From Gammaproteobacteria bacterium (lineage in GTDB: Bacteria; Pseudomonadota; Gammaproteobacteria; UBA4575): a stretch of DNA of 64,000 bases. Both the position numbers and the translations under genes were made by a program. The notes below the pieces were generated by a model. The model had not been told where the DNA came from. It did no database searches and was given only the letters and a program-made list of their open reading frames with translations. Below, piece by piece: positions 38,178 through 51,070 of this stretch. How positions within the stretch are numbered: the first letter of the stretch is position 1; each line of letters starts with the position of its first letter. The stretch covers positions 736,001-800,000 of the forward strand of contig CBDCUI010000009.1 in the NCBI GenBank assembly GCA_965222615.1, written 5' to 3'.

Positions 38178-39005
38178 ATGAACTTAAAAGGTACACTTGA
38201 TATTGCTGGACGCTCAAACACAGGACTAGTGCGTGCAAACAATGAAGACAAAATAGGCGAAGATCAAGAAATTGGTTTAGTCGTACTAGCAGATGGTATG
38301 GGTGGCTATAAGGGTGGAGAAGTTGCAAGCCGTATTGCAGTTAATACTATTTTAGAAGAATTACGTACAGAAATTCCTAATCTCATACCAGGAGAAATAG
38401 ACGAACAAACTGGGTATACAAAGGAAAGTTTAGCTGCGCGTAAATCTATTGTTAAAGCCAACGAATCAATTTTTACAGTAAGTACAAGTGAACCACAATA
38501 TCGTGGCATGGGCACAACACTTGTAATGGGAATCTTTTACGATAACCAAATCACTATTGCACATGTCGGTGACTCAAGGATGTATCGTTATCGAGATGGA
38601 AATTTTCAACAAGTAACAGTAGATCATACTCTGTTACAGGAACTCGTTGATCGTGGTTTTTATACGCAAGAAGAAGCAAACTCATCGCTCAATAAAAATT
38701 TAGTCACGCGTGCACTAGGCATTGAAGGTAGTATCGCAGTAGATATCAAAGAAGATTTGGCAATGCCTGATGACATTTACTTGCTATGCTCCGATGGTCT
38801 GACAGATATGGTCGATGATCAGGAAATTCATGCAACGGTAACGGCATTTAAGGATAATCTTGATGAATTGGCGGATAAGTTGATTGCAATTGCTAATGAG
38901 AATGGGGGCCGAGACAACGTTTCGGTATTATTAGCAAAACCAAATAAAGAGTTTCCTGGTAAGAAAACTTGGAAGAAAAAGTTTAGTAAATTTCTCCACA
39001 AGTAG
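38178..39005 (+). CDS. PP2C-family (Stp1-like) protein phosphatase
   Basis: RANNED, ADGMGG, HVGDSR, LCSDGL, GGRDN. Confidence 0.95.
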   Translation: MNLKGTLDIAGRSNTGLVRANNEDKIGEDQEIGLVVLADGMGGYKGGEVASRIAVNTILEELRTEIPNLIPGEIDEQTGYTKESLAARKSIVKANESIFTVSTSEPQYRGMGTTLVMGIFYDNQITIAHVGDSRMYRYRDGNFQQVTVDHTLLQELVDRGFYTQEEANSSLNKNLVTRALGIEGSIAVDIKEDLAMPDDIYLLCSDGLTDMVDDQEIHATVTAFKDNLDELADKLIAIANENGGRDNVSVLLAKPNKEFPGKKTWKKKFSKFLHK

Positions 39006-39014
39006 AATTGTGAC

Positions 39015-39971
39015 ATGCCTAAATTAATTTTAAGCGTCGATGATAAGATCATTGACGAATTCAATATAGATAAAGACACTGTCACCATCGGTCGACGAAC
39101 AGACAATGATATCTGTTTGGATAATCTTGCGATCAGTGGTTATCATTCTCAAATTACTACTGTGCTCAATGATTCTTTTTTGGAAGATTTGAACAGCACA
39201 AATGGGACATTTGTAAACTCTAAAATTGTCAAAAAGCATGCATTGAAAGATGGCGATATTATCGATATCGGAAACCATCGTATTAAATATATCAATCATC
39301 TTGCCACTAGTTCAGCCAATAGCGAATTTGAAAAAACAGTGGTAATAAGCCCCAACTACAATGAGAAAAAAATTGATGCTTCGATTGAAAACTTAGAAAG
39401 TGAAATTGAAGCGCTTATCGATACAAAAGAAGATGCCGACAATGACTCTCAAGATAGCAATAATAATGAACAAGCCGTTGCACTGATCGATGCAATCTAT
39501 GATGGACATGAAGATACCTCTCTAAAAATACCATCTATAGAAGATTCACCAGCTTCAGAAGAACCAGAGCTCAAAAAAGAATCATCTGCTGAAAATTTAG
39601 CTGATGAAAAATTAAGTTCTGAAGAAATGGGCCCTGTAGAAGCTACTATAGAAAAATCATCACCTAAAAAAGAAACTCCTTCCAAATCAGATGATAATGA
39701 AAACAAACTAGGCCGTATTCAAATTCTCAGTGGCAGTAATTGTGGTAAAGAATTAACTCTCGATAAGACTTTAACAACCTTAGGCAAGCCTGAGGTCGCG
39801 GTAGTTGGCATCACTAAACGCCGCAGTGGTTATTTCATCGTACATATCGATGGCAGTGAAGGTAATGCCTCTAGATTGAATGGTGAAATTATTAAAGGCA
39901 AAGCCCAGCCTCTAGAAGATCATGACATCATCGATGTCGCTGGGATTAAGTTAGAGTTTTTTGTCGAATAA
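39015..39971 (+). CDS. Double FHA-domain protein with acidic linker
   Basis: IGR, S..H, STNGTFVN; second FHA-like domain at C-terminus. Confidence 0.92.
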   Translation: MPKLILSVDDKIIDEFNIDKDTVTIGRRTDNDICLDNLAISGYHSQITTVLNDSFLEDLNSTNGTFVNSKIVKKHALKDGDIIDIGNHRIKYINHLATSSANSEFEKTVVISPNYNEKKIDASIENLESEIEALIDTKEDADNDSQDSNNNEQAVALIDAIYDGHEDTSLKIPSIEDSPASEEPELKKESSAENLADEKLSSEEMGPVEATIEKSSPKKETPSKSDDNENKLGRIQILSGSNCGKELTLDKTLTTLGKPEVAVVGITKRRSGYFIVHIDGSEGNASRLNGEIIKGKAQPLEDHDIIDVAGIKLEFFVE

Positions 39972-40006: not shown

Positions 40007-40510
40007 CTATAACTTATAAGTGACTGCTTTTGAGTCAAAGCATACTAGCTTGTGTGTTTTTACACTGTACTTAAATTTATGCTTTAAAAGCCTTAGCAAA
40101 TTAGATAATAACTCATTAACTGAATTAACCATAACATCAACAGTTAAAGCCCCTTCAAGCAGGACCCCTTCAAGCCCACCTTTTTGATTTACCACTGGCA
40201 CAGAGCTAACCCCAGCATCTCTCATATGTGCAATTGTCTCTATTATGTAGTCGTCTTCTACGGCAGTTAATATTTCATTACTAATAACATACTTCACAGC
40301 AACGTCATTCAGATTTATCTCATTGATCAACATATCAGTCACGACATCCCTATCTGCTAACGCGCCTATAGGTAAGTGTTGATTATCCTTATATTCAACT
40401 ACGACAATATCCCCAACGTGATTGTTACGCATAGTTTGAGCTGCTTTTTGTATTGAGTCGTCAGGTTGGCATATGACTACATTTTGATTTCTTAATTTGT
40501 CGATATACAT
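40007..40510 (-). CDS. CBS-domain protein, possibly degenerate
   Basis: AAQTMRNNHVGDIVVV, DRD, MRDAGV..VPVV. Confidence 0.75.
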   Translation of the reverse strand: MYIDKLRNQNVVICQPDDSIQKAAQTMRNNHVGDIVVVEYKDNQHLPIGALADRDVVTDMLINEINLNDVAVKYVISNEILTAVEDDYIIETIAHMRDAGVSSVPVVNQKGGLEGVLLEGALTVDVMVNSVNELLSNLLRLLKHKFKYSVKTHKLVCFDSKAVTYKL

Positions 40511-40582: not shown

Positions 40583-41275
40583 TTATTTAGCTGGCACAAA
40601 GATTGCTGCACGAATCGGCGGTAAAGGATTACCCATGGGATCAAGATCATCATGATCAGTAGTTAGATCTGTTATCCATGATGTATCACCAAGCATTGTC
40701 TCCATAGGAAGATCATGTATAGCCAACGCAATATGAACATCTGCCTTGAACCCATGACCTCGTTTTAATCCAACATCACTATTCTTGCCCAGTCCTTTAT
40801 TTATGTGTATTCCCTCTGGTATTTTTCCTGCAACTGTCTTGGCATGAATATTGACCACGCCATTGCCCATTCCATCGTCGGTACTAATTGCACTGCCTGC
40901 ATAATAAACTGCTGTTTGTGTGTCTGGATTTGAAATATCACTAAGAGCACACTTTGTTAATACTTCTCCATCTGGACCTTTCACTACAGTTTCATCATCG
41001 CACTTGTTTGGTTTGTTAAATATGATAAACCAAGCGGTAACGGGTACACCTGGATTTGGCACTAATGACATAATATTCGCTTTTAATTCATTTTTTTTAC
41101 GAAATAATGTCGCGGCACCTGTATATAGTGAACTCTCACTAACACCACCTTGACTACCATCAAATGTAAGCACATCTGCTGCTTGATACGCTAATTTCAT
41201 ATCGCCAGAGGAAGCATGAGCTGGAGAGCAAATAAATATTGCGGTAATAAATGAAATTAAAAATATTTTTTTCAT
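40583..41275 (-). CDS. Secreted hypothetical protein (candidate ECF target 1)
   Basis: Signal peptide ending AHA; TAWFIIFNKP..C...C; DVHIAL..H. Confidence 0.8.
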   Translation of the reverse strand: MKKIFLISFITAIFICSPAHASSGDMKLAYQAADVLTFDGSQGGVSESSLYTGAATLFRKKNELKANIMSLVPNPGVPVTAWFIIFNKPNKCDDETVVKGPDGEVLTKCALSDISNPDTQTAVYYAGSAISTDDGMGNGVVNIHAKTVAGKIPEGIHINKGLGKNSDVGLKRGHGFKADVHIALAIHDLPMETMLGDTSWITDLTTDHDDLDPMGNPLPPIRAAIFVPAK

Positions 41276-41420
41276 AAGTTATTCCCCTTCTTTTCTAATA
41301 AAAATTTTATAAAGTTATGAAAATTAGTGAATGCTGTTTCCAGCATTCAGGTTTACTTGAGCAAAAATTTATTTGCTTAAGTTACTAGTAAAGATGGGAG
41401 ATAGATAAAATTGTCAGAAA
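41276..41420 (-). promoter_or_regulatory. Conserved promoter/leader copy 1 with TCTGACA-N14-CCATCT
   Basis: Collinear with 42147-42290 and 50927-51070; motif at 41392-41418. Confidence 0.85.
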
Positions 41421-41633
41421 AAATTTTTGAGGCTAGTGAAAAGACAGATGTTTGGTACGGTTGCTTGTGCCAATAATGGTATTCAGTGGTACACAAGTTA
41501 TCTCAGTGGGTTTCAGAGTGGCCCGTAATTGACACATTGATTCAGATTAGCCTTTATGCGGCCTACCGTACTGAACAAACCGATACTTCGCTACTCCTGA
41601 AGTTCTATACCCTGCATTCAGAAATGCCCAACC

Positions 41634-42146
41634 TTAGTCATCGTCGCTTCTGTCATTATCTTCGGAGTTTAACAAGTCCAGGCGTCGGCCCTCATAGGTA
41701 ATGAATCCGAATGGAAACTCTACGTCTGGCGTACCATTCAAATCTGGAAAATCTTCGCTATTGGCAGCGTTCACGAAATACTGTTTTATACCTATGTCAC
41801 CCTTCAGAATATCGTTGTCGAGCTTCAGCTGTAACGTCGCCAACGTTATGTGCTGTTGCACTCCGGTACTGTCGTAATGGATATTGATTAGTTTAACCAG
41901 GATATTCTTGCGACTAATTTTTTCCCAGTTTCCATATGCCACTGAATCAAATCCATCACTGAAATCTGAAGTGTCCACCGACGTCGCGGTGCCATCCTGA
42001 TGTAGTGTTAAGATACGATGAAACAGGAGGTCATCTAAAATCGAAACATTACCAGGGAATACGCCAACCAGATTCGAATCCGCATCAGCACTTAATGTGA
42101 TACACAGAAATAGAATTGTCGATAAAAAACGGACTATTATTTTCAT
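41634..42146 (-). CDS. Secreted beta-strand-rich hypothetical protein (candidate ECF target 2)
   Basis: Signal peptide ending ADA; LTLHQDGT...YGNWEK pattern. Confidence 0.8.
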   Translation of the reverse strand: MKIIVRFLSTILFLCITLSADADSNLVGVFPGNVSILDDLLFHRILTLHQDGTATSVDTSDFSDGFDSVAYGNWEKISRKNILVKLINIHYDSTGVQQHITLATLQLKLDNDILKGDIGIKQYFVNAANSEDFPDLNGTPDVEFPFGFITYEGRRLDLLNSEDNDRSDDD

Positions 42147-42290
42147 CTGAACTCCCCTTCTTTTCTAATAAAAATTTTATAAAGTTATGAAAATTGATAA
42201 ATACTGTTACCAATTTTTACGTTTGCTTGAGAAAATGTTTAATTACTCAAGTTACTGGTAAAGATGGGGGATAGATGAATTTGTCAGAAA
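42147..42290 (-). promoter_or_regulatory. Conserved promoter/leader copy 2 with TCTGACA-N14-CCATCT
   Basis: Motif at 42262-42288. Confidence 0.85.
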
Positions 42291-42364
42291 AATTTTTATT
42301 ATTTTATGATTTAAAATAACCAAGAAGGCAGAAATAATATTTTGGGCTAGCAAAATACAGATGC

Positions 42365-43030
42365 TTATTGCATAACCACTAATTTATAGCGGGCTTTCGA
42401 TGTTCTTCCTTTTAAATCTGCTATCCTTACAGTTAACAAGTGTTGACCGCTCGGAAGGCTCATTTTTTTAATATTGAGTTGATTAGATTTAATCTTTGAT
42501 GATCTCAAAATACGTTCAGTTATGTCTGCATTCAATAAGCCGTATGTCAATTGAAAACTCTTTGCATCTATTTCTGAGTTTGGTGATGCTTCAAACGAGA
42601 GCTTAAACGCAAATGGTGATGTAATATTTTTTATATCTTTAGGTTTTTCGAGTGTAATTATTGGAAATTCTGGATCAATTGACATTTCTACTGCTTCCAA
42701 GGAAAGAAGTTGCTCCTTTGTCAAAGAAGCTATGTACTGATTTTCCGCATTAACATCTTTTTGGCTAATCAGCGGAAGCTGTGTAGGAACTAATTGTGTA
42801 TACAGCAAAATAGATACTGATAAAACTATAGTGGCTGCAATAGCAAAATAGGTAGGAGTGCTTAAATGTTTATTACGATCACTGGGTTCATCTGCATTTA
42901 TCTGGTTATTTACTTTTTGCATCAACTTGGATTTGAATGACTCAATGTCTGTGTCACTCACTAACGTTTCAAAATGCTTTTGTTCACGTTCTAAAGTCGT
43001 TTTCAGTTGTTCTTCAGCAGAATCACTCAT
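42365..43030 (-). CDS. Putative single-pass anti-sigma factor with periplasmic beta domain
   Basis: Directly downstream of ECF sigma; ~60-aa helical N-terminus, TM YFAIAATIVLSVSILLY, C-terminal beta-rich domain. Confidence 0.7.
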   Translation of the reverse strand: MSDSAEEQLKTTLEREQKHFETLVSDTDIESFKSKLMQKVNNQINADEPSDRNKHLSTPTYFAIAATIVLSVSILLYTQLVPTQLPLISQKDVNAENQYIASLTKEQLLSLEAVEMSIDPEFPIITLEKPKDIKNITSPFAFKLSFEASPNSEIDAKSFQLTYGLLNADITERILRSSKIKSNQLNIKKMSLPSGQHLLTVRIADLKGRTSKARYKLVVMQ

Positions 43031-43047
43031 ATTAATCTTCTACAAAT

Positions 43048-43629
43048 TTAACTAATCGTACTAATGTTTAATAAAACATCTTCACCACAAAATTTTTTTA
43101 TTAATTCTTGTAATTTCTTTCTTGCTTGTGAAACATATTCACGTGTAGCACCATAAGTCTTATCCATAAAAACTGCCACATCTTTTAGGCTCCATCCATT
43201 CAGCACTGATAATTCAATGATCAAAGCTTCATCATAAGAGCGCTTTCGAAGTGCGCTGATGGCTTCACCCAAACAATTTTCCAATAATAAATCATTAACA
43301 GTATACGTGCTCAAAATTTCTTCTAGTTGGTCGTTTTCCAACGAGTATTCTTTAATTGTGGATTGTTCTCGTAAATATTCGTTGAATGAGTTAAAAAACA
43401 TTCTCCATAAATAAGGGCGTATTTGATTTGCTTTTGCGATGAGCTTCGGTTTATTAGCTATTTTTAAAAATACGTTTTGAATAATATCCTCCGCATCGGC
43501 ATTGGATACACCCCTTTTATATAGATGACCCAGATACTTCTGCGCTAATTCATCATATAAATACGAAATGGCTTGAATCACTTGTTTCTTTTCCCCCAAT
43601 AAGTATTTTTTTATCAAAATATCATCCAT
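43048..43629 (-). CDS. ECF RNA polymerase sigma factor
   Basis: Region 2 DAEDIIQNVFLK...YLWR...N; region 4 GWSLKDVA...GATREYVSQARKKL; 193 aa. Confidence 0.9.
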   Translation of the reverse strand: MDDILIKKYLLGEKKQVIQAISYLYDELAQKYLGHLYKRGVSNADAEDIIQNVFLKIANKPKLIAKANQIRPYLWRMFFNSFNEYLREQSTIKEYSLENDQLEEILSTYTVNDLLLENCLGEAISALRKRSYDEALIIELSVLNGWSLKDVAVFMDKTYGATREYVSQARKKLQELIKKFCGEDVLLNISTIS

Positions 43630-43686
43630 TGACCATACTCATATTAGTGTTATCAAACATCAAATTATCTACGTATATTTAATTAT

Positions 43687-43714
43687 AGTTGCCTTTATGA
43701 AGTAAAATGTCAGA
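43687..43714 (-). promoter_or_regulatory. Possible autoregulatory promoter of the ECF sigma gene
   Basis: Minus strand TCTGACA-N15-GCAACT; weaker match to the motif. Confidence 0.45.
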
Positions 43715-43834
43715 ATATATTGCTTGTCAACAAGAAATATCTAATCTTTTTTCAAATCACGAAGAATTGGTTGGAGGCTATTATGCAATTAGTTACAAAT
43801 TGGTTACAACTCAGAATCCTGATATTAGTTAGAA

Positions 43835-43861
43835 TCTGACAGTTTCATCAAGTAACCATCT
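43835..43861 (+). promoter_or_regulatory. Promoter motif upstream of ompA-caspase operon
   Basis: TCTGACA-GTTTCATCAAGTAA(14)-CCATCT. Confidence 0.8.
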
Positions 43862-43897
43862 ATGACCATCGATTCCATGTCAGTTCACTTAAAAATA

Positions 43898-44461
43898 ATG
43901 GAATTTATAAAGTTATTTGTAACATTTGCATCCTGTTTAATAGGGACAATTATATTTGCTCAGGATGTTGATGTAATCATGGATAGTGGGACCATTGTAG
44001 AAGATTTACTAAAAGAGGATGGGATGACTCGCGGCATAAACGTTCAAGCAGTCAGTACCCCTTCATCTGATAAAACAAAGTCAGTAAGCAAAAGCGACGA
44101 AAAAAGCCCAAGTGTAGTTGCATTAAATATCCAATTTCATTTTGATTCAGCAAAATTAACAGAATCGGCTATTCTTCAATTAAATGAATTAGGTAAAGCT
44201 ATCACATCAAAACAACTTAACCATTATACATTCGAACTGATGGGTCATACCGACAGCGTAGGAAACCATGAATATAATCAATGGCTTTCTGAACAACGCG
44301 CTCTATCAACTAAGCACTATCTAATCAAAAATTTTAATGTAAAAAAGAATAAGTTGATTACATATGGTTATGGCGAAGAAAAACCACTGTTATTAAATGA
44401 TCCTACAAATAGCATTAATAGAAGGGTTGAAATACGAATACTTACAAGAACAAATAATTAA
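43898..44461 (+). CDS. Periplasmic OmpA C-terminal (peptidoglycan-binding) domain protein
   Basis: Signal peptide from MEFIKL; IQFHFDSA, GHTD..G...YN..LS.QRA, GYGE, NRRVEI. Confidence 0.92.
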   Translation: MEFIKLFVTFASCLIGTIIFAQDVDVIMDSGTIVEDLLKEDGMTRGINVQAVSTPSSDKTKSVSKSDEKSPSVVALNIQFHFDSAKLTESAILQLNELGKAITSKQLNHYTFELMGHTDSVGNHEYNQWLSEQRALSTKHYLIKNFNVKKNKLITYGYGEEKPLLLNDPTNSINRRVEIRILTRTNN

Positions 44462-44490
44462 TATTCAAAAATAATAAATTGGGACCGCTT

Positions 44491-45912
44491 ATGAAATTAT
44501 ACAACAAAATAATTTTTTGTATTGCAGTCTTAAATGGGCTGTTTATTTCATGTGAAAATGTTATTGCTGCACAAAAAGCATTGTTGGTAGGTGTTGGTGA
44601 ATATCAAATACCAAACAAAGAATTACCAGGTATTGATGTTGACATACAGTTGATGAAAGAGATACTGGCAAGATTAGGTTACGCAGAAAGCGAAATAAAA
44701 ATATTACATAACAAAGATGCAACATTGCAAAATATAAAAAAAGCGATTACAAATTGGCTTGTCGACGGCGTACAAAAAAATGACCGAATTGTTATATATT
44801 TTGGTACTCATGGGAGCAGAATATACGACGTTGACGGAGATGAAGAAGATCAAGTAGATGAAGTCTTACTCGCCCATGATGCGAAGTTTTTCACAACAAA
44901 ACATGGGCGCACACTTAAAAATGTAGTTATTGATGATGATTTAGCAAATTGGCTTGCTAATATTCCAAGTGAAAATATTTTTGTTTTAGTTGATGCATGT
45001 AATAGTGGCTCGGTTACAAGGAGTGTTAAATTATCAAATTTATCCTTAGGTGTTGAGACCGCAGCAGCTAAATTCTTTTACTATGACGGCATTCCAGATG
45101 AGAGTGGCTCGACATTTACTAGGTCACTAGTCAATCGAAGTCTTGATCAAAACGTTAATTATATTGCTATTTCAGCTGCAAAAGATCATGAAATGGCCCT
45201 TTCAACTGAACAAGGAAGTTTTTTCACACTTGGTATTTTTGATGGAATAAACAAAGCATCTAACGGATCAGGCACAATTACTGTCGAGCAATTACATCGC
45301 CATGCAGATAGCTATATTGCTAAAACAATCTCAAGAGAAAAAAGATATCACCCACAACTTCATGGTAATGAATATTTAGCAAAGAAAAAATATAAACTAT
45401 TCAAGTTTATGCAAGGGCATGGCTCAAAATGGCAATCATTAGAAAAAATATCCAACCAGGTACAAGATTTAGAGTTATCTTTAAATCAAGAAGAATATGC
45501 CTTACAAGACAGTGTATATATCGCTGTAGATCTTCCTAAAGTAGGTTATCTTAATATAGTTTCAGTAAATGCATACGATCAGGGCACCATTCTTTTCCCA
45601 AATAAATTTAACTTGGATAATTATGTAAATAGTACAAACTTAACTATTCCATCAAAAAACATGCCGTTTAAGCTCGCTGCGGTTAAACCCACCGGACCAA
45701 CATTGATAGTTGGGTTCTTATCAACTGCACCGATAAATCTTTATGAACTGAGTTATGAAGGTCGTGATATCGGTGGTGCTTTAAATAAAGCTTTTGCAAC
45801 ACTATCTTACAGTGGTATTCGTGCTATAACTTTAGAATCAGAAAAAACGAAGCAAAACTATGAAGATGTTTTATACAGCAAATCTGTATACACAAATATT
45901 AAAATGAAATAA
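44491..45912 (+). CDS. Secreted metacaspase-like C14 peptidase with C-terminal DUF4384-like domain
   Basis: Signal peptide; THGS and DACNSG dyad; DVDGDEEDQVDE acidic motif; GYL...LFPN...IP...F...P.G C-terminal domain. Confidence 0.9.
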   Translation: MKLYNKIIFCIAVLNGLFISCENVIAAQKALLVGVGEYQIPNKELPGIDVDIQLMKEILARLGYAESEIKILHNKDATLQNIKKAITNWLVDGVQKNDRIVIYFGTHGSRIYDVDGDEEDQVDEVLLAHDAKFFTTKHGRTLKNVVIDDDLANWLANIPSENIFVLVDACNSGSVTRSVKLSNLSLGVETAAAKFFYYDGIPDESGSTFTRSLVNRSLDQNVNYIAISAAKDHEMALSTEQGSFFTLGIFDGINKASNGSGTITVEQLHRHADSYIAKTISREKRYHPQLHGNEYLAKKKYKLFKFMQGHGSKWQSLEKISNQVQDLELSLNQEEYALQDSVYIAVDLPKVGYLNIVSVNAYDQGTILFPNKFNLDNYVNSTNLTIPSKNMPFKLAAVKPTGPTLIVGFLSTAPINLYELSYEGRDIGGALNKAFATLSYSGIRAITLESEKTKQNYEDVLYSKSVYTNIKMK

Positions 45913-47271
45913 ATGTATACAAAAATCACCATTATTTTAGTTTTTTTATTATCAATAAATATTTCATATGCAACAAATCGCTATGCGCTCGTTATAGGCA
46001 ATTCTGATTATCCGTTTGGTCAGCTAAGGAATCCTAGTAATGATGCACAAGATGTTGCCTCAGAATTTGAGAAATACGGATTCGATGTAGATTTAAAAAC
46101 CAATGCGACCGCATTCCAACTAAAACAATCCTTGGATAGCTTACAAAGTAAGCTGCAGTCCAGTAGAGGAATTGGCATCATTTATTTCGCTGGGCATGGC
46201 GTGCAGTTTCAAGCCGAAAACTTTTTACTCCCTGTCGATGTTTCAACTACTTCTGCAACCGAACTTAAACGTACAGCCTTATCACTAAATACGGTCGTGA
46301 ACACGTTAGACCAGGCGCAGAACAAACTCAATTTAGTCATTCTCGATGCCTGTCGTAATAATCCATTCAAGAGTAGTTCACTTACGAGTGTTTCTCGAGG
46401 TCTACAAGCCGAGGCTAAAAAAGAACAAGATGGCTTAGCCCCGGTAGCGATCAGTGTGTCGTCCGGAACGGTGTTTTGGTATGCCACGCGTCCTGGGGAT
46501 GTGGCTTTAGACGGTAGTGGTCGCAATAGTCCTTTTACTTCGAGTCTGCTGCAAGTCCTTAATAATCATGCTGTACCGGCACGCTCGATTATCAGTCAAG
46601 TTGCAATACGAATGCGTAATTTAAAAATTAATCAACAGCCCTGGCAAGAAGGTATTTGGTTAGAAGACTTTCATTTTGATGAGTCAAGTAACCATAAAAA
46701 TGTCCCCGTGCAAATCGCTAAATATGATTCATTTCAGGAAGATATATATCGTGACTATATTAAGAATTGCAAAAAGTCTGGTAAAAAATGTAAACATTTA
46801 GCTAGCGTCGAAAAAATAATTGAGGAGTCGGATAAAAAAACAACTATAGCAAACACAAAACTCGAAAATGCTGCACCTAGCAAAATTGATGGATACGATG
46901 ATTGGCTTGGGCAGTGGCAATGCACGTGGGCGCATAATGATAATTCGAATAAGGGAACAAGCATTGTTAAATTTTACAAATTTGAAAAAAATATTCTATA
47001 TGGTACTTCGAGTCTTTCGACATGCCCTCAAGCTTCTAAATTTAAATTGGATACTACTGAATCACCTTTGAAATATACATTACTCCCCTGCTGTGCATCT
47101 TGGACTTGGAAAACCACGATGTGTAATGCAATGCTTAGAATAACAATCGAAAAAATTCCTAAATTAGGAGAACAACAAGCTATGAAGTCCTCATACACTA
47201 CAGATTTTTTTAACCTTCCTTCAAGCAGTCTTAGTATAGGTGGCGAACAAACTTGTATAAAAATTTACTAG
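45913..47271 (+). CDS. Secreted caspase-family (para/orthocaspase-like) C14 peptidase with Cys-rich C-terminal domain
   Basis: Signal peptide; RYALVIGN..Y, LRNP.NDA, YFAGHG, ILDACRNNPF, NSPFT. Confidence 0.92.
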   Translation: MYTKITIILVFLLSINISYATNRYALVIGNSDYPFGQLRNPSNDAQDVASEFEKYGFDVDLKTNATAFQLKQSLDSLQSKLQSSRGIGIIYFAGHGVQFQAENFLLPVDVSTTSATELKRTALSLNTVVNTLDQAQNKLNLVILDACRNNPFKSSSLTSVSRGLQAEAKKEQDGLAPVAISVSSGTVFWYATRPGDVALDGSGRNSPFTSSLLQVLNNHAVPARSIISQVAIRMRNLKINQQPWQEGIWLEDFHFDESSNHKNVPVQIAKYDSFQEDIYRDYIKNCKKSGKKCKHLASVEKIIEESDKKTTIANTKLENAAPSKIDGYDDWLGQWQCTWAHNDNSNKGTSIVKFYKFEKNILYGTSSLSTCPQASKFKLDTTESPLKYTLLPCCASWTWKTTMCNAMLRITIEKIPKLGEQQAMKSSYTTDFFNLPSSSLSIGGEQTCIKIY

Positions 47272-47356
47272 GAGCTATATTGAATAAACGCTTTTGGCCA
47301 ATAGCGTTTATTCATGTAAATACATTTTTTATATAAAACCAAGATTTTATAAGAAA

Positions 47357-47384
47357 AAAATAGGCGCCCGAAGGCGCCTATTTT
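47357..47384. terminator. Bidirectional intrinsic terminator
   Basis: AAAATAGGCGCC-CGAA-GGCGCCTATTTT between convergent genes. Confidence 0.9.
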
Positions 47385-47408
47385 GGGTAAAACTAGAGTC
47401 TTATTCAG

Positions 47409-48815
47409 TTAGAATAACTGAACCAAACCCACTGCGACCATTTCAAGATCACCTCCAACACCATTACCCGCTGAATTGATACCGAAATCATAATTGGCGT
47501 TTCTGTCATTAGAGACTTCAGAGTAGATTACACGTAATTCGGTGCCGGCTGGGAAGGTGTAGAACAAACCAATGTTATACGCATCACCACTTGAACTGCT
47601 GTCGGATAGACCATTATTACAGGTACTACTACCTGCACCGGAATCACAATCCAAATCATCAGCATCCATATAGGAGAAGCGGATATCAAACGGTCCTGGA
47701 AAGTTGTGTTTACCCGATATCATCCAAGCATCGCGTTCCACTTCGTTTCTATTGCCAGCTACACCGTTACCACCGAGTATACCAGCACCTGTAGCACAAT
47801 CTTTATGAACATACTTAATTTCTTCATACATGCCGGAGAACCAAGTTGAGTGGCCATTGCCCCAATCGTGAATGTAACGACCCGCGATACGCCATGAATC
47901 ATCATCAGAATCTCTACAGCCAAAATCGGCTGCAGCCCAATCATCATGTTTTTCATAAGTGAGGGCACCCCAAATGGTGGATCTACCTTTACCGACGTCG
48001 TTTTCGTAGGCAACCCCCATAGACCAAATACGTGGGTCTATTTTTTTCGTAGTACCAGAAGCCGTGGTTACCTGCACATCGCCATTACCAGAAAAGTAGT
48101 TCAAGCCAGGGTCGTTATGAGCATTGGAGGTCGCAATACGGGCTGTAAAGCCATTCCAATTAGGTGAGAACCACTGTACCACACCGTTTTGACGTCGGTT
48201 AAAACCATTGTTTTGAGGACCAAAGTTCGCACCAAAGGGACCAAAATTGGTCGGTCCACCAAAACCACCACCGTTATCAAAACCGAAGCCACCGTTAAAG
48301 AAACGGGTACCGAAGCCGACTGAGCCCATGATGGAGCTGGTAGAATCCGCACCTGCATCACCGAAAGGGTCAATCCATGGAAATACCATTTCATTATGAG
48401 GTAGCAACCAATGAGCAAACATCACTTCGCCCCAAACACCAGCCAAGCCTAGCTTACTGTTACGATTACAGAAATCATTAAAGCCAAAAATGCCTGAACC
48501 AGTAAGTCGGTTAATAAAAAGGAATTGTTCACAACGAAAGGTTGCTATGATCGGGGTTTCGCCAACAGTAAAACCGGTATCGATTTGTGCATCAAAACCT
48601 AAATGCGCAACATTAGCACTGATACGAGACATATCTCTGTCATCCCCTGGGCCATAATAGTTTTCAGACTCTACCCATTCATATGAGTAGTTCTGATATG
48701 CATAAATAGTCCAGTTTGAGTTAGCATTACCGCCACTTATCCCTCCAGCAAATGGTGCTAGTGGTAACGCTACAAGGACGAATGCAAAAGCAGCTCTTAT
48801 TAGATTAGTTTTCAT
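47409..48815 (-). CDS. Outer membrane porin (general diffusion porin-like)
   Basis: Signal peptide, NRNSKLGLAG.WGEV, VQWFSPNWNGF, amphipathic last strand ending in F. Confidence 0.85.
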   Translation of the reverse strand: MKTNLIRAAFAFVLVALPLAPFAGGISGGNANSNWTIYAYQNYSYEWVESENYYGPGDDRDMSRISANVAHLGFDAQIDTGFTVGETPIIATFRCEQFLFINRLTGSGIFGFNDFCNRNSKLGLAGVWGEVMFAHWLLPHNEMVFPWIDPFGDAGADSTSSIMGSVGFGTRFFNGGFGFDNGGGFGGPTNFGPFGANFGPQNNGFNRRQNGVVQWFSPNWNGFTARIATSNAHNDPGLNYFSGNGDVQVTTASGTTKKIDPRIWSMGVAYENDVGKGRSTIWGALTYEKHDDWAAADFGCRDSDDDSWRIAGRYIHDWGNGHSTWFSGMYEEIKYVHKDCATGAGILGGNGVAGNRNEVERDAWMISGKHNFPGPFDIRFSYMDADDLDCDSGAGSSTCNNGLSDSSSSGDAYNIGLFYTFPAGTELRVIYSEVSNDRNANYDFGINSAGNGVGGDLEMVAVGLVQLF

Positions 48816-49084
48816 GTAATTTCCCTCCCGTGCAATTTACAGGAGCTTTTCATACGCTCCTTTAAATTGTTATTGATTTTTATTTGAAAGCTTTTAATTA
48901 AAGCTTTATGCGCAAATAAGATTTAACTTATTAACATTAGATTTTACATTAAAGTGGATAATTGATGATCAATGAATATTTATTTTTTATTGACTAGTTT
49001 ATTGACTTAATGCAATTCTTAATTTTTTTTAAAGCTCATAGTTTTTTTATTGAGAAATATAAGATATTGCTAAGCAATAAATTT

Positions 49085-49393
49085 TACGAAGGAAAGATAT
49101 TATGTCTGCTTATGAGATTTAAATAAAACTTTCGCAGCACTATCTTATAGTAGTATTCGAGCTATAACTTTGGAATCAGAAAGATAAAATTAAATGTAAC
49201 ACAAAAACCTTTAAGTTATACAGTGCATCATGCATCGACGTTGTATTATAGACAATGCACAATAAAAGTATTTACTATCGACCAGATTACTACTTCTCAA
49301 GAACAACTCATTTTCAATGCCACTTATACTAATAGCCAACACAACGGTCTCCTACTTGAGCGTGGTAAACAAACTTGTATAAAAATTTTATAA
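49085..49393 (+). pseudogene. Fused remnant of the 3' ends of both caspase genes
   Basis: NKTFAALSYSSIRAITLESER matches the end of the 44491 gene; IKLNVTQKPLSYT...GKQTCIKIL* matches the end of the 45913 gene. Confidence 0.85.
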
Positions 49394-49516
49394 AACATTG
49401 TTGAACATCTGCTATGAGTGGTTACCAGACATTTCAAGTTTGTAAACCCTTGATTCCAACAAATTCGTCCCTAAATTTGCCCGCCTTCAGCCAATAGCGG
49501 CCACTAACTCTGTTAT

Positions 49517-49545
49517 AAAAAAGCCCCACTATAAAGGTGAGGCTT
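49517..49545 (-). terminator. Intrinsic terminator of the beta-helix protein gene
   Basis: AAGCCTCAC-loop-GTGGGGCTTTTTT. Confidence 0.75.
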
Positions 49546-49573
49546 CGTAATTTAGTCGGATGACTATCTTGTT

Positions 49574-50926
49574 TTAATCGTCGTTGCCAACAAGCCTGAC
49601 TTCATTGTTGATACCTAGATCAACTACCAGTAGACAGCCCGGTGTGCTGCATGATGCGCCTGGATACACATTTACAACTTCTATTGGACCTGGAGCCACA
49701 GCAGTTACAAGGTTGTTGAAACTTGGTCCGGTAATTGGCGCACCATTGCTACCATTTTTTTCGGGCCCATTCGTGTTATCAAAAAACACATCAACATCAT
49801 TGTCTTGTAATTTTGTTTTGAGGAATCTGTTATTGCCACTAAAACTTTGTTCAACGTTGACCCCAAAGTCGCAGTTGCGTACCTCATTATTTTTCCACAC
49901 GGTATCAACTTCTTCGTTATTAGCACAAAGTCCATTGAAGCAAGCATGTATATAATTATCCTTAATTCGTGCACGAGTATTTTTCTTAGCAGAATCAGCC
50001 CCTATAGCAAAAACCGAAGCTGCTACGCTCGTGGCAATAGCGCAACCTTGATTACGAAATAAACTACCAGGTATTACCTCTTTTATACCATTTAACATGG
50101 TATTGCCTTTTACCTTGGTGTCTTCAGTGCCAAGCATTTGAACAGCATAATTGCCATATCCATTAAACAAGTTATTTTTGATCACAGTATTCTTAACTTG
50201 ATCCTCTTCTTCATTTTCGGTAACTACTTCAAAAGAAAAGGTATTAAAATTGAAGCAAATAGAACCTCCACCTAATAGCCTCACACCCGCAGAATTTATC
50301 CCTGTTATATTTGTCATTTTATTGTTCTTAACTTGAAGACGGTTAACAGAGCCTGCATTCACCCCAAAGGTGACATTATCGAAATAATTATCCTTAATGA
50401 CGATATTATTAAACGAGCCCGGTATATAATTATTTTCATCACAGTTTAAACTCGGACTATTATAATTAGTAATTGACACAGCTCGGTTAAACAGCTCGAA
50501 CTTAAGATCATGTATTTTAATGTTTTCAATGGTGCCGTTCAGAGGCGTAGGGCCGATCAAAAGCCCTCTATTTCTAAATTCTGTCGTAAAAGGATCATCA
50601 GAAAGAGGGCTACCAGGAAGACAACCAGGAGTATTTTGACCACATTCGGTACCACGCAATACAGTCCAATCATTATTAGCACCTTTTATGGTTAGGTTTG
50701 AGCGTTGAATAGAAACAAACGTATCATCAAATTGGCAAATTCCTTTGAGCTCAACGACACGATTGTTTGTATTGTCAACTGCAGCTTGAATTTTCGCTCT
50801 ATCAGATGCGATGTCGTTTTCACACTGGACCACTTGCATATTGCCGTCATTGTCGTCAGCGAAAGAAAAACTTGGTACCACCAAAAGTAATGCCAAGCCT
50901 ATTTGAATAAAGTGTATGGTTTTCAT
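49574..50926 (-). CDS. Secreted right-handed beta-helix (pectin lyase-like fold) protein (candidate ECF target 3)
   Basis: Signal peptide; IQAAVD start motif; repeated IKDN/VKNN/IKNN/VKGN units. Confidence 0.8.
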   Translation of the reverse strand: MKTIHFIQIGLALLLVVPSFSFADDNDGNMQVVQCENDIASDRAKIQAAVDNTNNRVVELKGICQFDDTFVSIQRSNLTIKGANNDWTVLRGTECGQNTPGCLPGSPLSDDPFTTEFRNRGLLIGPTPLNGTIENIKIHDLKFELFNRAVSITNYNSPSLNCDENNYIPGSFNNIVIKDNYFDNVTFGVNAGSVNRLQVKNNKMTNITGINSAGVRLLGGGSICFNFNTFSFEVVTENEEEDQVKNTVIKNNLFNGYGNYAVQMLGTEDTKVKGNTMLNGIKEVIPGSLFRNQGCAIATSVAASVFAIGADSAKKNTRARIKDNYIHACFNGLCANNEEVDTVWKNNEVRNCDFGVNVEQSFSGNNRFLKTKLQDNDVDVFFDNTNGPEKNGSNGAPITGPSFNNLVTAVAPGPIEVVNVYPGASCSTPGCLLVVDLGINNEVRLVGNDD

Positions 50927-51070
50927 CTGAACCTCCCTTCTTTTCTAATGGAAATTTTATAAAGTTATGAAAGTTAACTAATATTGTTACCAGCATTTAG
51001 GCTTACTAGTGCAAACGCTTAATCGCTTAAGCTATTAGTAAAGACGGGGGATAAATTAAATTGTCAGAAA
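50927..51070 (-). promoter_or_regulatory. Conserved promoter/leader copy 3 with TCTGACA-N14-CCGTCT
   Basis: Motif at 51042-51068. Confidence 0.85.

Follow-up and report, generated by a model that had tools for sequence, protein, structure and literature searches.

A stretch of 64,000 nucleotides (nt) from a gammaproteobacterial genome (contig CBDCUI010000009.1, positions 736,001 to 800,000; hereafter the window) carries a gene for a sigma factor of the extracytoplasmic function (ECF) type, around which the two-box motif TCTGACA-N14-CCRTCT recurs upstream of several genes. The question that this locus raises is whether the motif is the promoter read by this sigma factor, and which genes would then make up its regulon. 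The evidence set out below makes it quite probable that the motif serves the sigma factor encoded at 43048-43629 as its cognate ECF promoter, with autoregulation and a small regulon confined to the locus.

Four exact matches to TCTGACA-N14-CCRTCT (W1 to W4; Table 1) occur in the window, compared to none in 100 dinucleotide-preserving shuffles, and they are the only copies in the whole genome (3,097,016 bases, nine contigs), in which the back-to-front control pattern gave 0 matches. Our pattern scan reproduced the coordinates, strands, 14-nt spacers and gene-ward orientation that the original prediction had given for these four sites, and it also recovered the weaker copy reported upstream of the sigma gene, which reads TCTGACA-N15-GCAACT (equally written with a 16-nt spacer, as in Table 1) and lies 57 nt 5' of the sigma ATG. 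All five sites aim at a start codon 36-116 nt downstream. The gap between motif and ATG is 116, 115 and 115 nt for the open reading frames (ORFs) of 230, 170 and 450 amino acids (aa), respectively, while W4 directly adjoins the ATG listed for the OmpA-like ORF. A second ATG, which aligns with the start of the ORF's ortholog in a relative (genome G014, see below), follows W4 at a distance of 36 nt. This second ATG, at 43898, is likely the true start as judged by N-terminal comparison with the ortholog. At the sequence level, the five sites span 9.7 kb and include the sigma gene's own.

Relaxing the pattern did not spread the motif over the genome. CTGACA-N14-CCRTC gave six matches genome-wide, four of them at the locus, and TGACA-N14-CCRTCT gave four, all at the locus; CTGACA-N14-16-CRTCT gave nine (four at the locus; five for the reversed control) and [TC]CTGACA-N14-16-C[AG][TA]CT gave eight (five at the locus, the sigma-gene copy included; two for the reversed control). 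The sigma-gene copy was the sole locus site that the relaxed patterns added. The ten sites of this genome and G014 (see below) were also turned into a weight matrix, with which the genome was scanned using spacers of 13-15 nt, so that both 16-nt sigma-gene sites were outside its range. The three cassette sites (W1-W3, see below) scored 30.3-32.1 and the OmpA site (W4) 23.3, one outside site on the minus strand of another contig (C8, 809674) scored 24.0, and every other site in the genome scored at most 17.6. The outside site was regarded as chance because its spacer measures 13 nt and its position is antisense within a 199-aa ORF. Overall, the strict motif was confined to the locus and the looser scans gave no credible site outside it, which is in line with the original prediction of a regulon of the local sigma.

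The motif is conserved at an orthologous locus in G014, a genome from another genus of the same family and the sole other genome of the order with the sigma gene. Identities to the window are 68% for the sigma factor, 47% for the putative anti-sigma factor, 42% for the OmpA-like protein, and 51% and 43% for two caspase-family proteases (with and without a DUF4384 domain, respectively). CTGACA-N14-16-CRTCT gave eight matches in G014 (one for the control), of which five lie within 928042-936224, a stretch of 8.2 kb around the sigma gene, including one directly upstream of it, as would be anticipated for an orthologous sigma. The OmpA-like gene has an exact TCTGACA-N14-CCATCT 35 nt before its start (36 nt in the window), and the sigma gene is preceded by TCTGACA-N16-CATCT followed by ATAATTAAAT, with spacer and following bases as in the window. 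Of the remaining copies, CCTGACA-N15-CATCT is found 72 nt before the ATG of a 2033-aa gene (SpvB, FG-GAP, TcdB_toxin_midN and RHS domains), and two more copies each head a structured sequence of ~100 nt, the pair being 90% identical. Both of these repeats show stable three-way hairpin folds (z-scores -3.9 and -3.8) and hold no ORF longer than 13 codons, which makes them candidates for sigma-dependent small RNAs or leader remnants. Intergenic DNA of the window and of G014 is alignable only around the boxes, and no DNA-binding protein besides the sigma is conserved between the two loci. Transcription from the motif of the second repeat would run towards a 330-aa gene and yield RNA antisense to it.

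We then compared motif and sigma gene over the order by scanning all 56 genomes with CTGACA-N14-16-CRTCTWW (counts tallied from the hit table). The genome of the window has six matches, four of them within 9.7 kb, and the five of G014 all fall within 8.2 kb. A total of 68 matches is spread over the remaining 54 genomes (0-5 each, 14 genomes with none), and their nearest pair on the same contig is 35 kb apart. Since these 54 genomes show scattered matches only, motif clusters occur only in the two genomes with the sigma, around that gene, and the motif is not equally frequent elsewhere. The sigma itself is very rare. An ortholog was found in one of 40 sampled relatives and, within the order, in one of 55 further genomes. 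A class sample of 399 other genomes (one genome unscored) had none at E values up to 1e-20 save for a 26%-identical relative in genome G384, and a phylum sample of 400 genomes gave one match at E values up to 1e-17 (G467). Eight metagenomic relatives of 64-87% identity were present among 5.8 billion proteins, three of them encoded on contigs of 16-45 kb, and a profile search of 1.84 billion representatives gave one cluster at E values up to 1e-30 and 138 at up to 1e-10. Named genome contigs held only distant sigmas (at most 43% identity over short segments, mostly Firmicutes), all of which were left out of the comparison, and a scan of Joint Genome Institute (JGI) metagenome proteins gave no match. 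Four stretches returned by a DNA-pattern scan of the JGI metagenomes encode no relative of any locus protein and were discarded as chance.

Assignment to the ECF group (group IV) of the sigma-70 family follows from the domains detected in the protein sequence, which matched Sigma70_r2 of Pfam at 24.8 bits (cut-off 24) and the NCBIfam model TIGR02937 (sigma70-ECF) at 49.3 bits (cut-off 42.9), with Sigma70_r4_2 slightly below its threshold (25.1 bits, cut-off 25.7). Neither region 1 nor region 3 was matched in the Pfam and NCBIfam scans, and matches to solved ECF sigmas were weak. The best equivalog match in NCBIfam, SigZ (TIGR02959), was rejected at 52.2 bits vs a cut-off of 168.65. The gene that follows encodes a single-pass membrane protein that probably acts as the anti-sigma factor. 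A structure model of the sigma with residues 1-58 of this protein scored 0.84 vs 0.23 for the best control. Of 80 solved complexes, 58 reached that mark, as did 2 of 110 mismatched pairs; the input alignments held ten sequences for the sigma and two for the partner. Runs agreed in at least 85% of contacts, the partner had a predicted local distance difference test score (pLDDT) of at least 78, and contacts were made on both sigma domains. The model thus supports binding of residues 1-58 to both domains, with the reservation that, as many sigma/anti-sigma complexes have already been solved, passing this mark may reflect likeness to them. Residues 1-58 contain no cysteine, neither here nor in the aligned G014 ortholog, so this is not a zinc-type anti-sigma domain; the protein had no Pfam match even at E values up to 10. 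Sequence comparison gave no support for a DUF4384-like periplasmic part. A co-transcribed cognate anti-sigma is described as an early hallmark of ECF sigmas that is not required any more (PMC8103513). The 17-nt gap between the two genes, the conserved pair in G014 and the complex model all argue for such a partner here.

The ten sites of the two genomes give the consensus (T/C)CTGACA, a 15-nt spacer (range 14-16) and C(A/G)TCT, that is, two mutually different, non-palindromic boxes with a fixed orientation to the downstream gene. A scan for sigma-70 promoters (TTGACA, 16-18 nt, TATAAT) called none of the five window sites in their orientation and found 31 sites in the 12-kb region vs 44.6 expected. 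With a 7-nt -35 box, a spacer within the published range and a C(G/A)TC -10 box, the layout fits promoters of studied ECF sigmas: those of ECF41 read TGTCACA-n16-CGTC with a spacer of 16 +/- 1 bp and a regulon limited to neighbouring genes (PMC3426412), and for DdvS four promoters have been validated, none of them away from the sigma locus and one being that of DdvS itself, in a report that also credits spacers of 14-17 bp with adding to selectivity (PMC6061681). The original prediction had called the -10 core of the motif typical of ECF promoters. This stands for CGTC, as found in ECF41 (PMC3426412); most sites here carry CATC, and their -35 box is without the AAC described as usual (PMC8103513).

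W1, W2 and W3 proved to be one repeated cassette of ~140 nt (79-85% identity), which combines the putative promoter with a conserved leader and is present in the genome in these three copies only. Similarity begins 3-12 nt upstream of the -35 box and stops within ~10 nt of the ATG, and outside the cassettes both the coding sequences and the upstream flanks are unrelated. The OmpA and sigma-gene copies have the boxes in common with the cassettes and nothing more; for the OmpA copy, this agrees with the original prediction that it is not a plain duplication product. As W1-W3 are one cassette, the window alone gives three independent lineages, not five. Conservation of all three leaders is highest in the final ~50 nt. 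Each of their minimum-energy folds has TTTCATAACTTT paired to both the ribosome-binding stretch (AAGGGG) and the start codon (ATGAAA), with fold z-scores of -5.5, -2.3 and -0.6. The paired bases are invariant and hence without covariation. Such pairing would mask translation initiation and may thereby add translational or attenuation control on top of the promoter. Rfam gave no match at the leaders. A patchy leader look-alike at 49330-49520 on the minus strand shares a 16-nt exact word and has no promoter boxes; it may be a decayed fourth copy of the cassette, for which support is weak.

Several observations count against reading the motif as the promoter of this sigma. The -35 box has GAC in ten of ten sites, where ECF promoters usually carry AAC, and the -10 box has CGT in two, CAT in seven and CAA in one; the sites thus lack the combination of AAC at -35 and CGT at -10, which is described as an early ECF hallmark that is no longer defining (PMC8103513) and from which the -35 box of ECF41 likewise departs. 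The motif is assigned to this sigma by its adjacency and co-occurrence, and the comparison covers the two genomes with the sigma. W1-W3 are mutual paralogues, as are two of the G014 sites (G3 and G5), and the OmpA site and the sigma site each form an orthologous pair between the genomes, so that the ten sites represent about five to seven independent lineages. Because these sites were gathered with the pattern itself, the boxes are invariant in part simply through the way they were selected. The weight matrix is circular for the sites it was built from, and the weight of its scan comes from the lack of other good sites in the genome. A perfect TATAAT follows the sigma-gene copy in both genomes, so that the housekeeping sigma may be a second reader of the sigma-gene promoter, or its only one. 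Finally, the genome has ten sigma-70-family matches, about six of them of ECF size.

The last two points would also suit an alternative explanation in which the boxes are a real promoter read by another ECF-sized sigma, or by the housekeeping sigma aided by an activator, the more so as CTGACA differs by one letter from the sigma-70 -35 hexamer. However, the motif clusters in only 2 of 56 genomes, both of which have this sigma, and is centred on and directly upstream of its gene, no sigma-70-type match was obtained at any of the five sites, and the invariant CRTCT is misplaced for a sigma-70 -10 hexamer, with TATAAT sitting 20 nt from CTGACA, too long for the 16-18 nt of the sigma-70 scan. We therefore consider another reader unlikely. 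Conservation and clustering alone would fit an operator or activator site of a DNA-binding regulator, or another cis element travelling with the island, as well as they fit a promoter, and the sigma is the only regulator identified at the locus; against such a site speak the two unlike, non-palindromic boxes in fixed orientation to the gene, a spacing of 14-16 nt that fits -35/-10 geometry (PMC6061681) and the lack of any other DNA-binding protein common to both loci, which together leave it a very low probability. That the copies are relics of local duplication without present function is hardly credible: three of the four exact copies do lie in one cassette, and two of the five G014 copies in another repeat, but the OmpA and sigma copies match the cassettes in the boxes only, the boxes are kept at orthologous positions though the proteins have diverged to 42-68% identity, and the similarity of the cassettes ends just outside the promoter and at the start codon.

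Returning to a cognate promoter read by the local sigma, we propose that the cytoplasmic N-terminus of the membrane protein would hold the sigma inactive and that the released sigma would drive five local promoters, whose transcript starts are thereby predicted as well. The weaker copy with its 1-nt longer spacer would place the sigma's own operon under positive autoregulation. The divergent operon under the same control would supply the OmpA-like protein and two exported caspase-family proteases, and three genes for exported proteins would each be transcribed from a duplicated cassette of promoter and 115-nt leader, and the 3' part of the leader could pair with the ribosome-binding site and start codon. 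The regulon would be local and travel with the sigma gene, with G014 carrying the same core and motif and other cargo (the Tc/RHS-type protein).

Table 1 Features of the sigma locus and of its counterpart in G014 (window positions unless L007 is given).
Feature	Position	Strand	Basis or remark
Motif copy W1, putative promoter of 230-aa gene	41392-41418	-	Pattern match
Motif copy W2, putative promoter of 170-aa gene	42262-42288	-	Pattern match
Motif copy W3, putative promoter of 450-aa gene	51042-51068	-	-10 box CCGTCT
Motif copy W4, putative promoter of OmpA-caspase-caspase operon	43835-43861	+	Exact G014 counterpart before OmpA-like gene
Sigma-gene motif copy, candidate autoregulatory promoter	43687-43714	-	TCTGACA-N16-CAACT, then ATAATTAAAT
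Conserved 116-nt leader of W1, including terminator-like hairpin at 41328-41349	41276-41391	-	Alignment, fold z-score -5.5
Conserved 115-nt leader of W2	42147-42261	-	Alignment
Conserved 115-nt leader of W3	50927-51041	-	Alignment
ECF-type sigma factor, 193 aa	43048-43629	-	Pfam and NCBIfam matches
Single-pass membrane protein, 221 aa, putative anti-sigma	42365-43030	-	Starts 17 nt after sigma gene; no Pfam family
230-aa ORF, signal-peptide-like N-terminus, no family	40583-41275	-	Translation, family scans
170-aa ORF, signal-peptide-like N-terminal segment, no family	41634-42146	-	Signal peptide judged by eye
OmpA-family peptidoglycan-binding protein, divergent from sigma gene	43862-44461	+	PF00691, E 4e-19
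Exported caspase-family protease, Peptidase_C14 and DUF4384	44479-45912	+	Pfam; 51% identical G014 ortholog
Second exported caspase-family protease, Peptidase_C14	45913-47271	+	Pfam; 43% identical G014 ortholog
12-bp GC-rich hairpin with T runs	47357-47384		Between convergent caspase and 468-aa genes
450-aa ORF, signal-peptide-like N-terminus, no family	49574-50926	-	Hairpin and T run after it, ~49515-49541
G014 motif-headed repeats	L007 11638-11770 and 18200-18335	+	Direct repeats flanking 2033-aa gene

Both caspase-family proteins have kept the His and Cys motifs of the catalytic dyad and have signal-peptide-like N-termini, as read from their translations. The hairpin downstream of them is likely the terminator of the OmpA-caspase-caspase operon, and Rfam gave only weak sub-threshold matches to small RNAs at 47300-47392, falling on this hairpin. 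The 170-, 230-, 450- and 468-aa proteins had no Pfam, NCBIfam or PADLOC family and have no counterparts in the G014 locus. A sequence search of the 450- and 468-aa proteins against solved structures gave no significant match, an Atlas search with the 230-aa protein gave unnamed clusters only, and the 450-aa protein, when modelled from its single sequence, reached a mean pLDDT of 32.5, too low for the structure to be used. The 468-aa protein has a signal-peptide-like start and a C-terminal Phe as in outer-membrane barrels. Between its gene and the 450-aa gene lie 758 nt (48816-49573) without any ORF of 60 aa or more.

To the left of the locus are genes for a PP2C-type phosphatase and an FHA-domain protein (38178-39971, plus strand), and a CBS-pair gene (40007-40510, minus strand) lies 72 nt after the 230-aa gene on the same strand. 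These flanking genes differ from those of G014, which are a 139-aa integrase fragment and an EamA transporter; the fragment, which the G014 module abuts, is of the phage type (L007 6203-6622, plus strand). The G+C content of the core genes (42365-45912) is 0.33-0.35 vs 0.39 for the whole window. Integrase fragment, low G+C, presence in 2 of 56 genomes and different flanks together point to horizontal movement of an island with a regulatory circuit of its own. Contigs from three sequencing runs match the window exactly wherever the promoters are covered, which left no variation to analyse.

The closest studied analogue of the module is DdvS/DdvA of Myxococcus xanthus. Similar to the locus described here, it consists of an ECF sigma with a single-pass membrane anti-sigma (PMC6061681, PMC11506125) and a periplasmic caspase-fold protease module, and its few promoters all adjoin the sigma gene, its own included (PMC6061681); at the sequence level, the putative sigma promoters show the same clustering here, with five in 9.7 kb of the window and five in 8.2 kb of G014. 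The caspase-fold module of DdvA is proposed to be the first protease freeing the sigma, which is still a hypothesis, with self-cleavage of the periplasmic TPR-CHAT domain proposed to precede the action of RseP (PMC11506125). The TPR-CHAT domain is part of the anti-sigma in DdvA, whereas the locus has two separate exported Peptidase_C14 proteins in a divergent operon, and the ~140-aa periplasmic part of its putative anti-sigma belongs to no recognised family. A CHCC zinc-binding anti-sigma domain like that of DdvA is impossible in the absence of cysteine from residues 1-58. DdvS promoters have AAc and cGT as against GAC and, in most sites, CAT in the present boxes. CBASS and CRISPR-Cas make up the DdvS cargo, in contrast to exported proteins without a recognised family here, and the two sigmas show no relationship in sequence beyond the ECF superfamily.

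Other known systems match in part. ECF41 resembles the locus in having a group-specific -35 box of 7 nt with ACA at its end, a -10 box of the CGTC type, a spacer of ~16 nt and targets restricted to the neighbouring genes (PMC3426412), but its -35 word differs from TCTGACA, and it has a large C-terminal regulatory extension and no anti-sigma, whereas the present sigma of 193 aa does not extend beyond region 4 and is accompanied by a membrane partner encoded separately. In type III-E CRISPR systems (Csx29 TPR-CHAT, Csx30, Csx31, RpoE), a caspase-like protease is likewise genetically tied to an ECF-type sigma: Csx29 cuts Csx30, Csx30 binds the sigma, and DUF4384, here fused to one of the caspases, is the C-terminal domain of some Csx30 proteins (bioRxiv 10.1101/2022.08.17.504292). 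These systems are cytoplasmic and RNA-guided, however, while no CRISPR genes were found among the locus ORFs scanned and the sigma scored 29 bits with the III-E sigma model (cut-off 100). Canonical envelope-stress ECF systems such as RpoE/RseA have a sigma and membrane anti-sigma operon with positive autoregulation (PMC8103513), as predicted here, where the anti-sigma N-terminus is modelled between the two sigma domains, but their regulon is genome-wide and not local, their boxes differ, and the NCBIfam scan of the locus proteins found no RseA or RseB family.

The link to caspase-fold proteases extends to more distant relatives of the sigma. In G384 (L083 8035-17235), a relative of 26% identity (profile E 2.5e-21) lies near genes for a putative anti-sigma, a CHASE2 protein and two C14 proteins, one of 1383 aa with WD40 and one with DUF4384, and in G467 (L089 2414-13251), a relative with a profile E of 4.9e-20 lies near genes for a putative anti-sigma, a CHASE2 protein, a C14 protein of 701 aa and a TPR-CHAT protein of 1033 aa. 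All three sigma relatives found (3/3) therefore have caspase-fold protease neighbours, which suggests that a wider ECF lineage is linked to such proteases. In the stretches of the G384 and G467 loci that were read, there was no TCTGACA-type motif. A tentative and rather doubtful extension by analogy is that the conserved core of five genes, for the sigma, the putative anti-sigma, the OmpA-like protein and the two exported C14 caspases (one with DUF4384), is a split periplasmic version of the protease-gated switch proposed for DdvA. The free caspases would cut the periplasmic part of the anti-sigma as the first proteolytic step and, as the caspase operon carries the putative promoter of the sigma, the switch would be self-amplifying. 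It would fire interchangeable cargo behind portable cassettes, namely three exported proteins here and the Tc/RHS-type protein in G014. A literature search for a module of ECF sigma, C14, OmpA and DUF4384 returned only the work on DdvS/DdvA and type III-E. The main text of the ECF re-classification (PMC7826278) mentions no caspase, OmpA or CHAT; the clade may already feature in the group descriptions of its supplement, where genomic contexts and predicted promoter motifs are given.

That an ECF sigma drives its own gene and a few neighbours from one type of promoter is textbook; what is new here is a very rare sigma clade with boxes of its own. The locus is lifted above the routine by its link to caspases, by a promoter-leader cassette that is portable and by cargo that varies. 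The five predicted promoters, all local, would define a complete regulon and provide a testable, nearly orthogonal sigma/promoter pair for an unstudied ECF clade. The duplicated promoter-plus-leader cassette shows a route by which unrelated cargo genes may be recruited into such a regulon. The caspase-family proteases are not mere neighbours of the sigma but carry its putative promoter, and with separate soluble proteases, protease-gated release of a sigma becomes directly testable. If the split switch is true, the distant relatives beside C14, CHAT and CHASE2 genes would represent a wider, unstudied ECF lineage tied to caspase-fold proteases.

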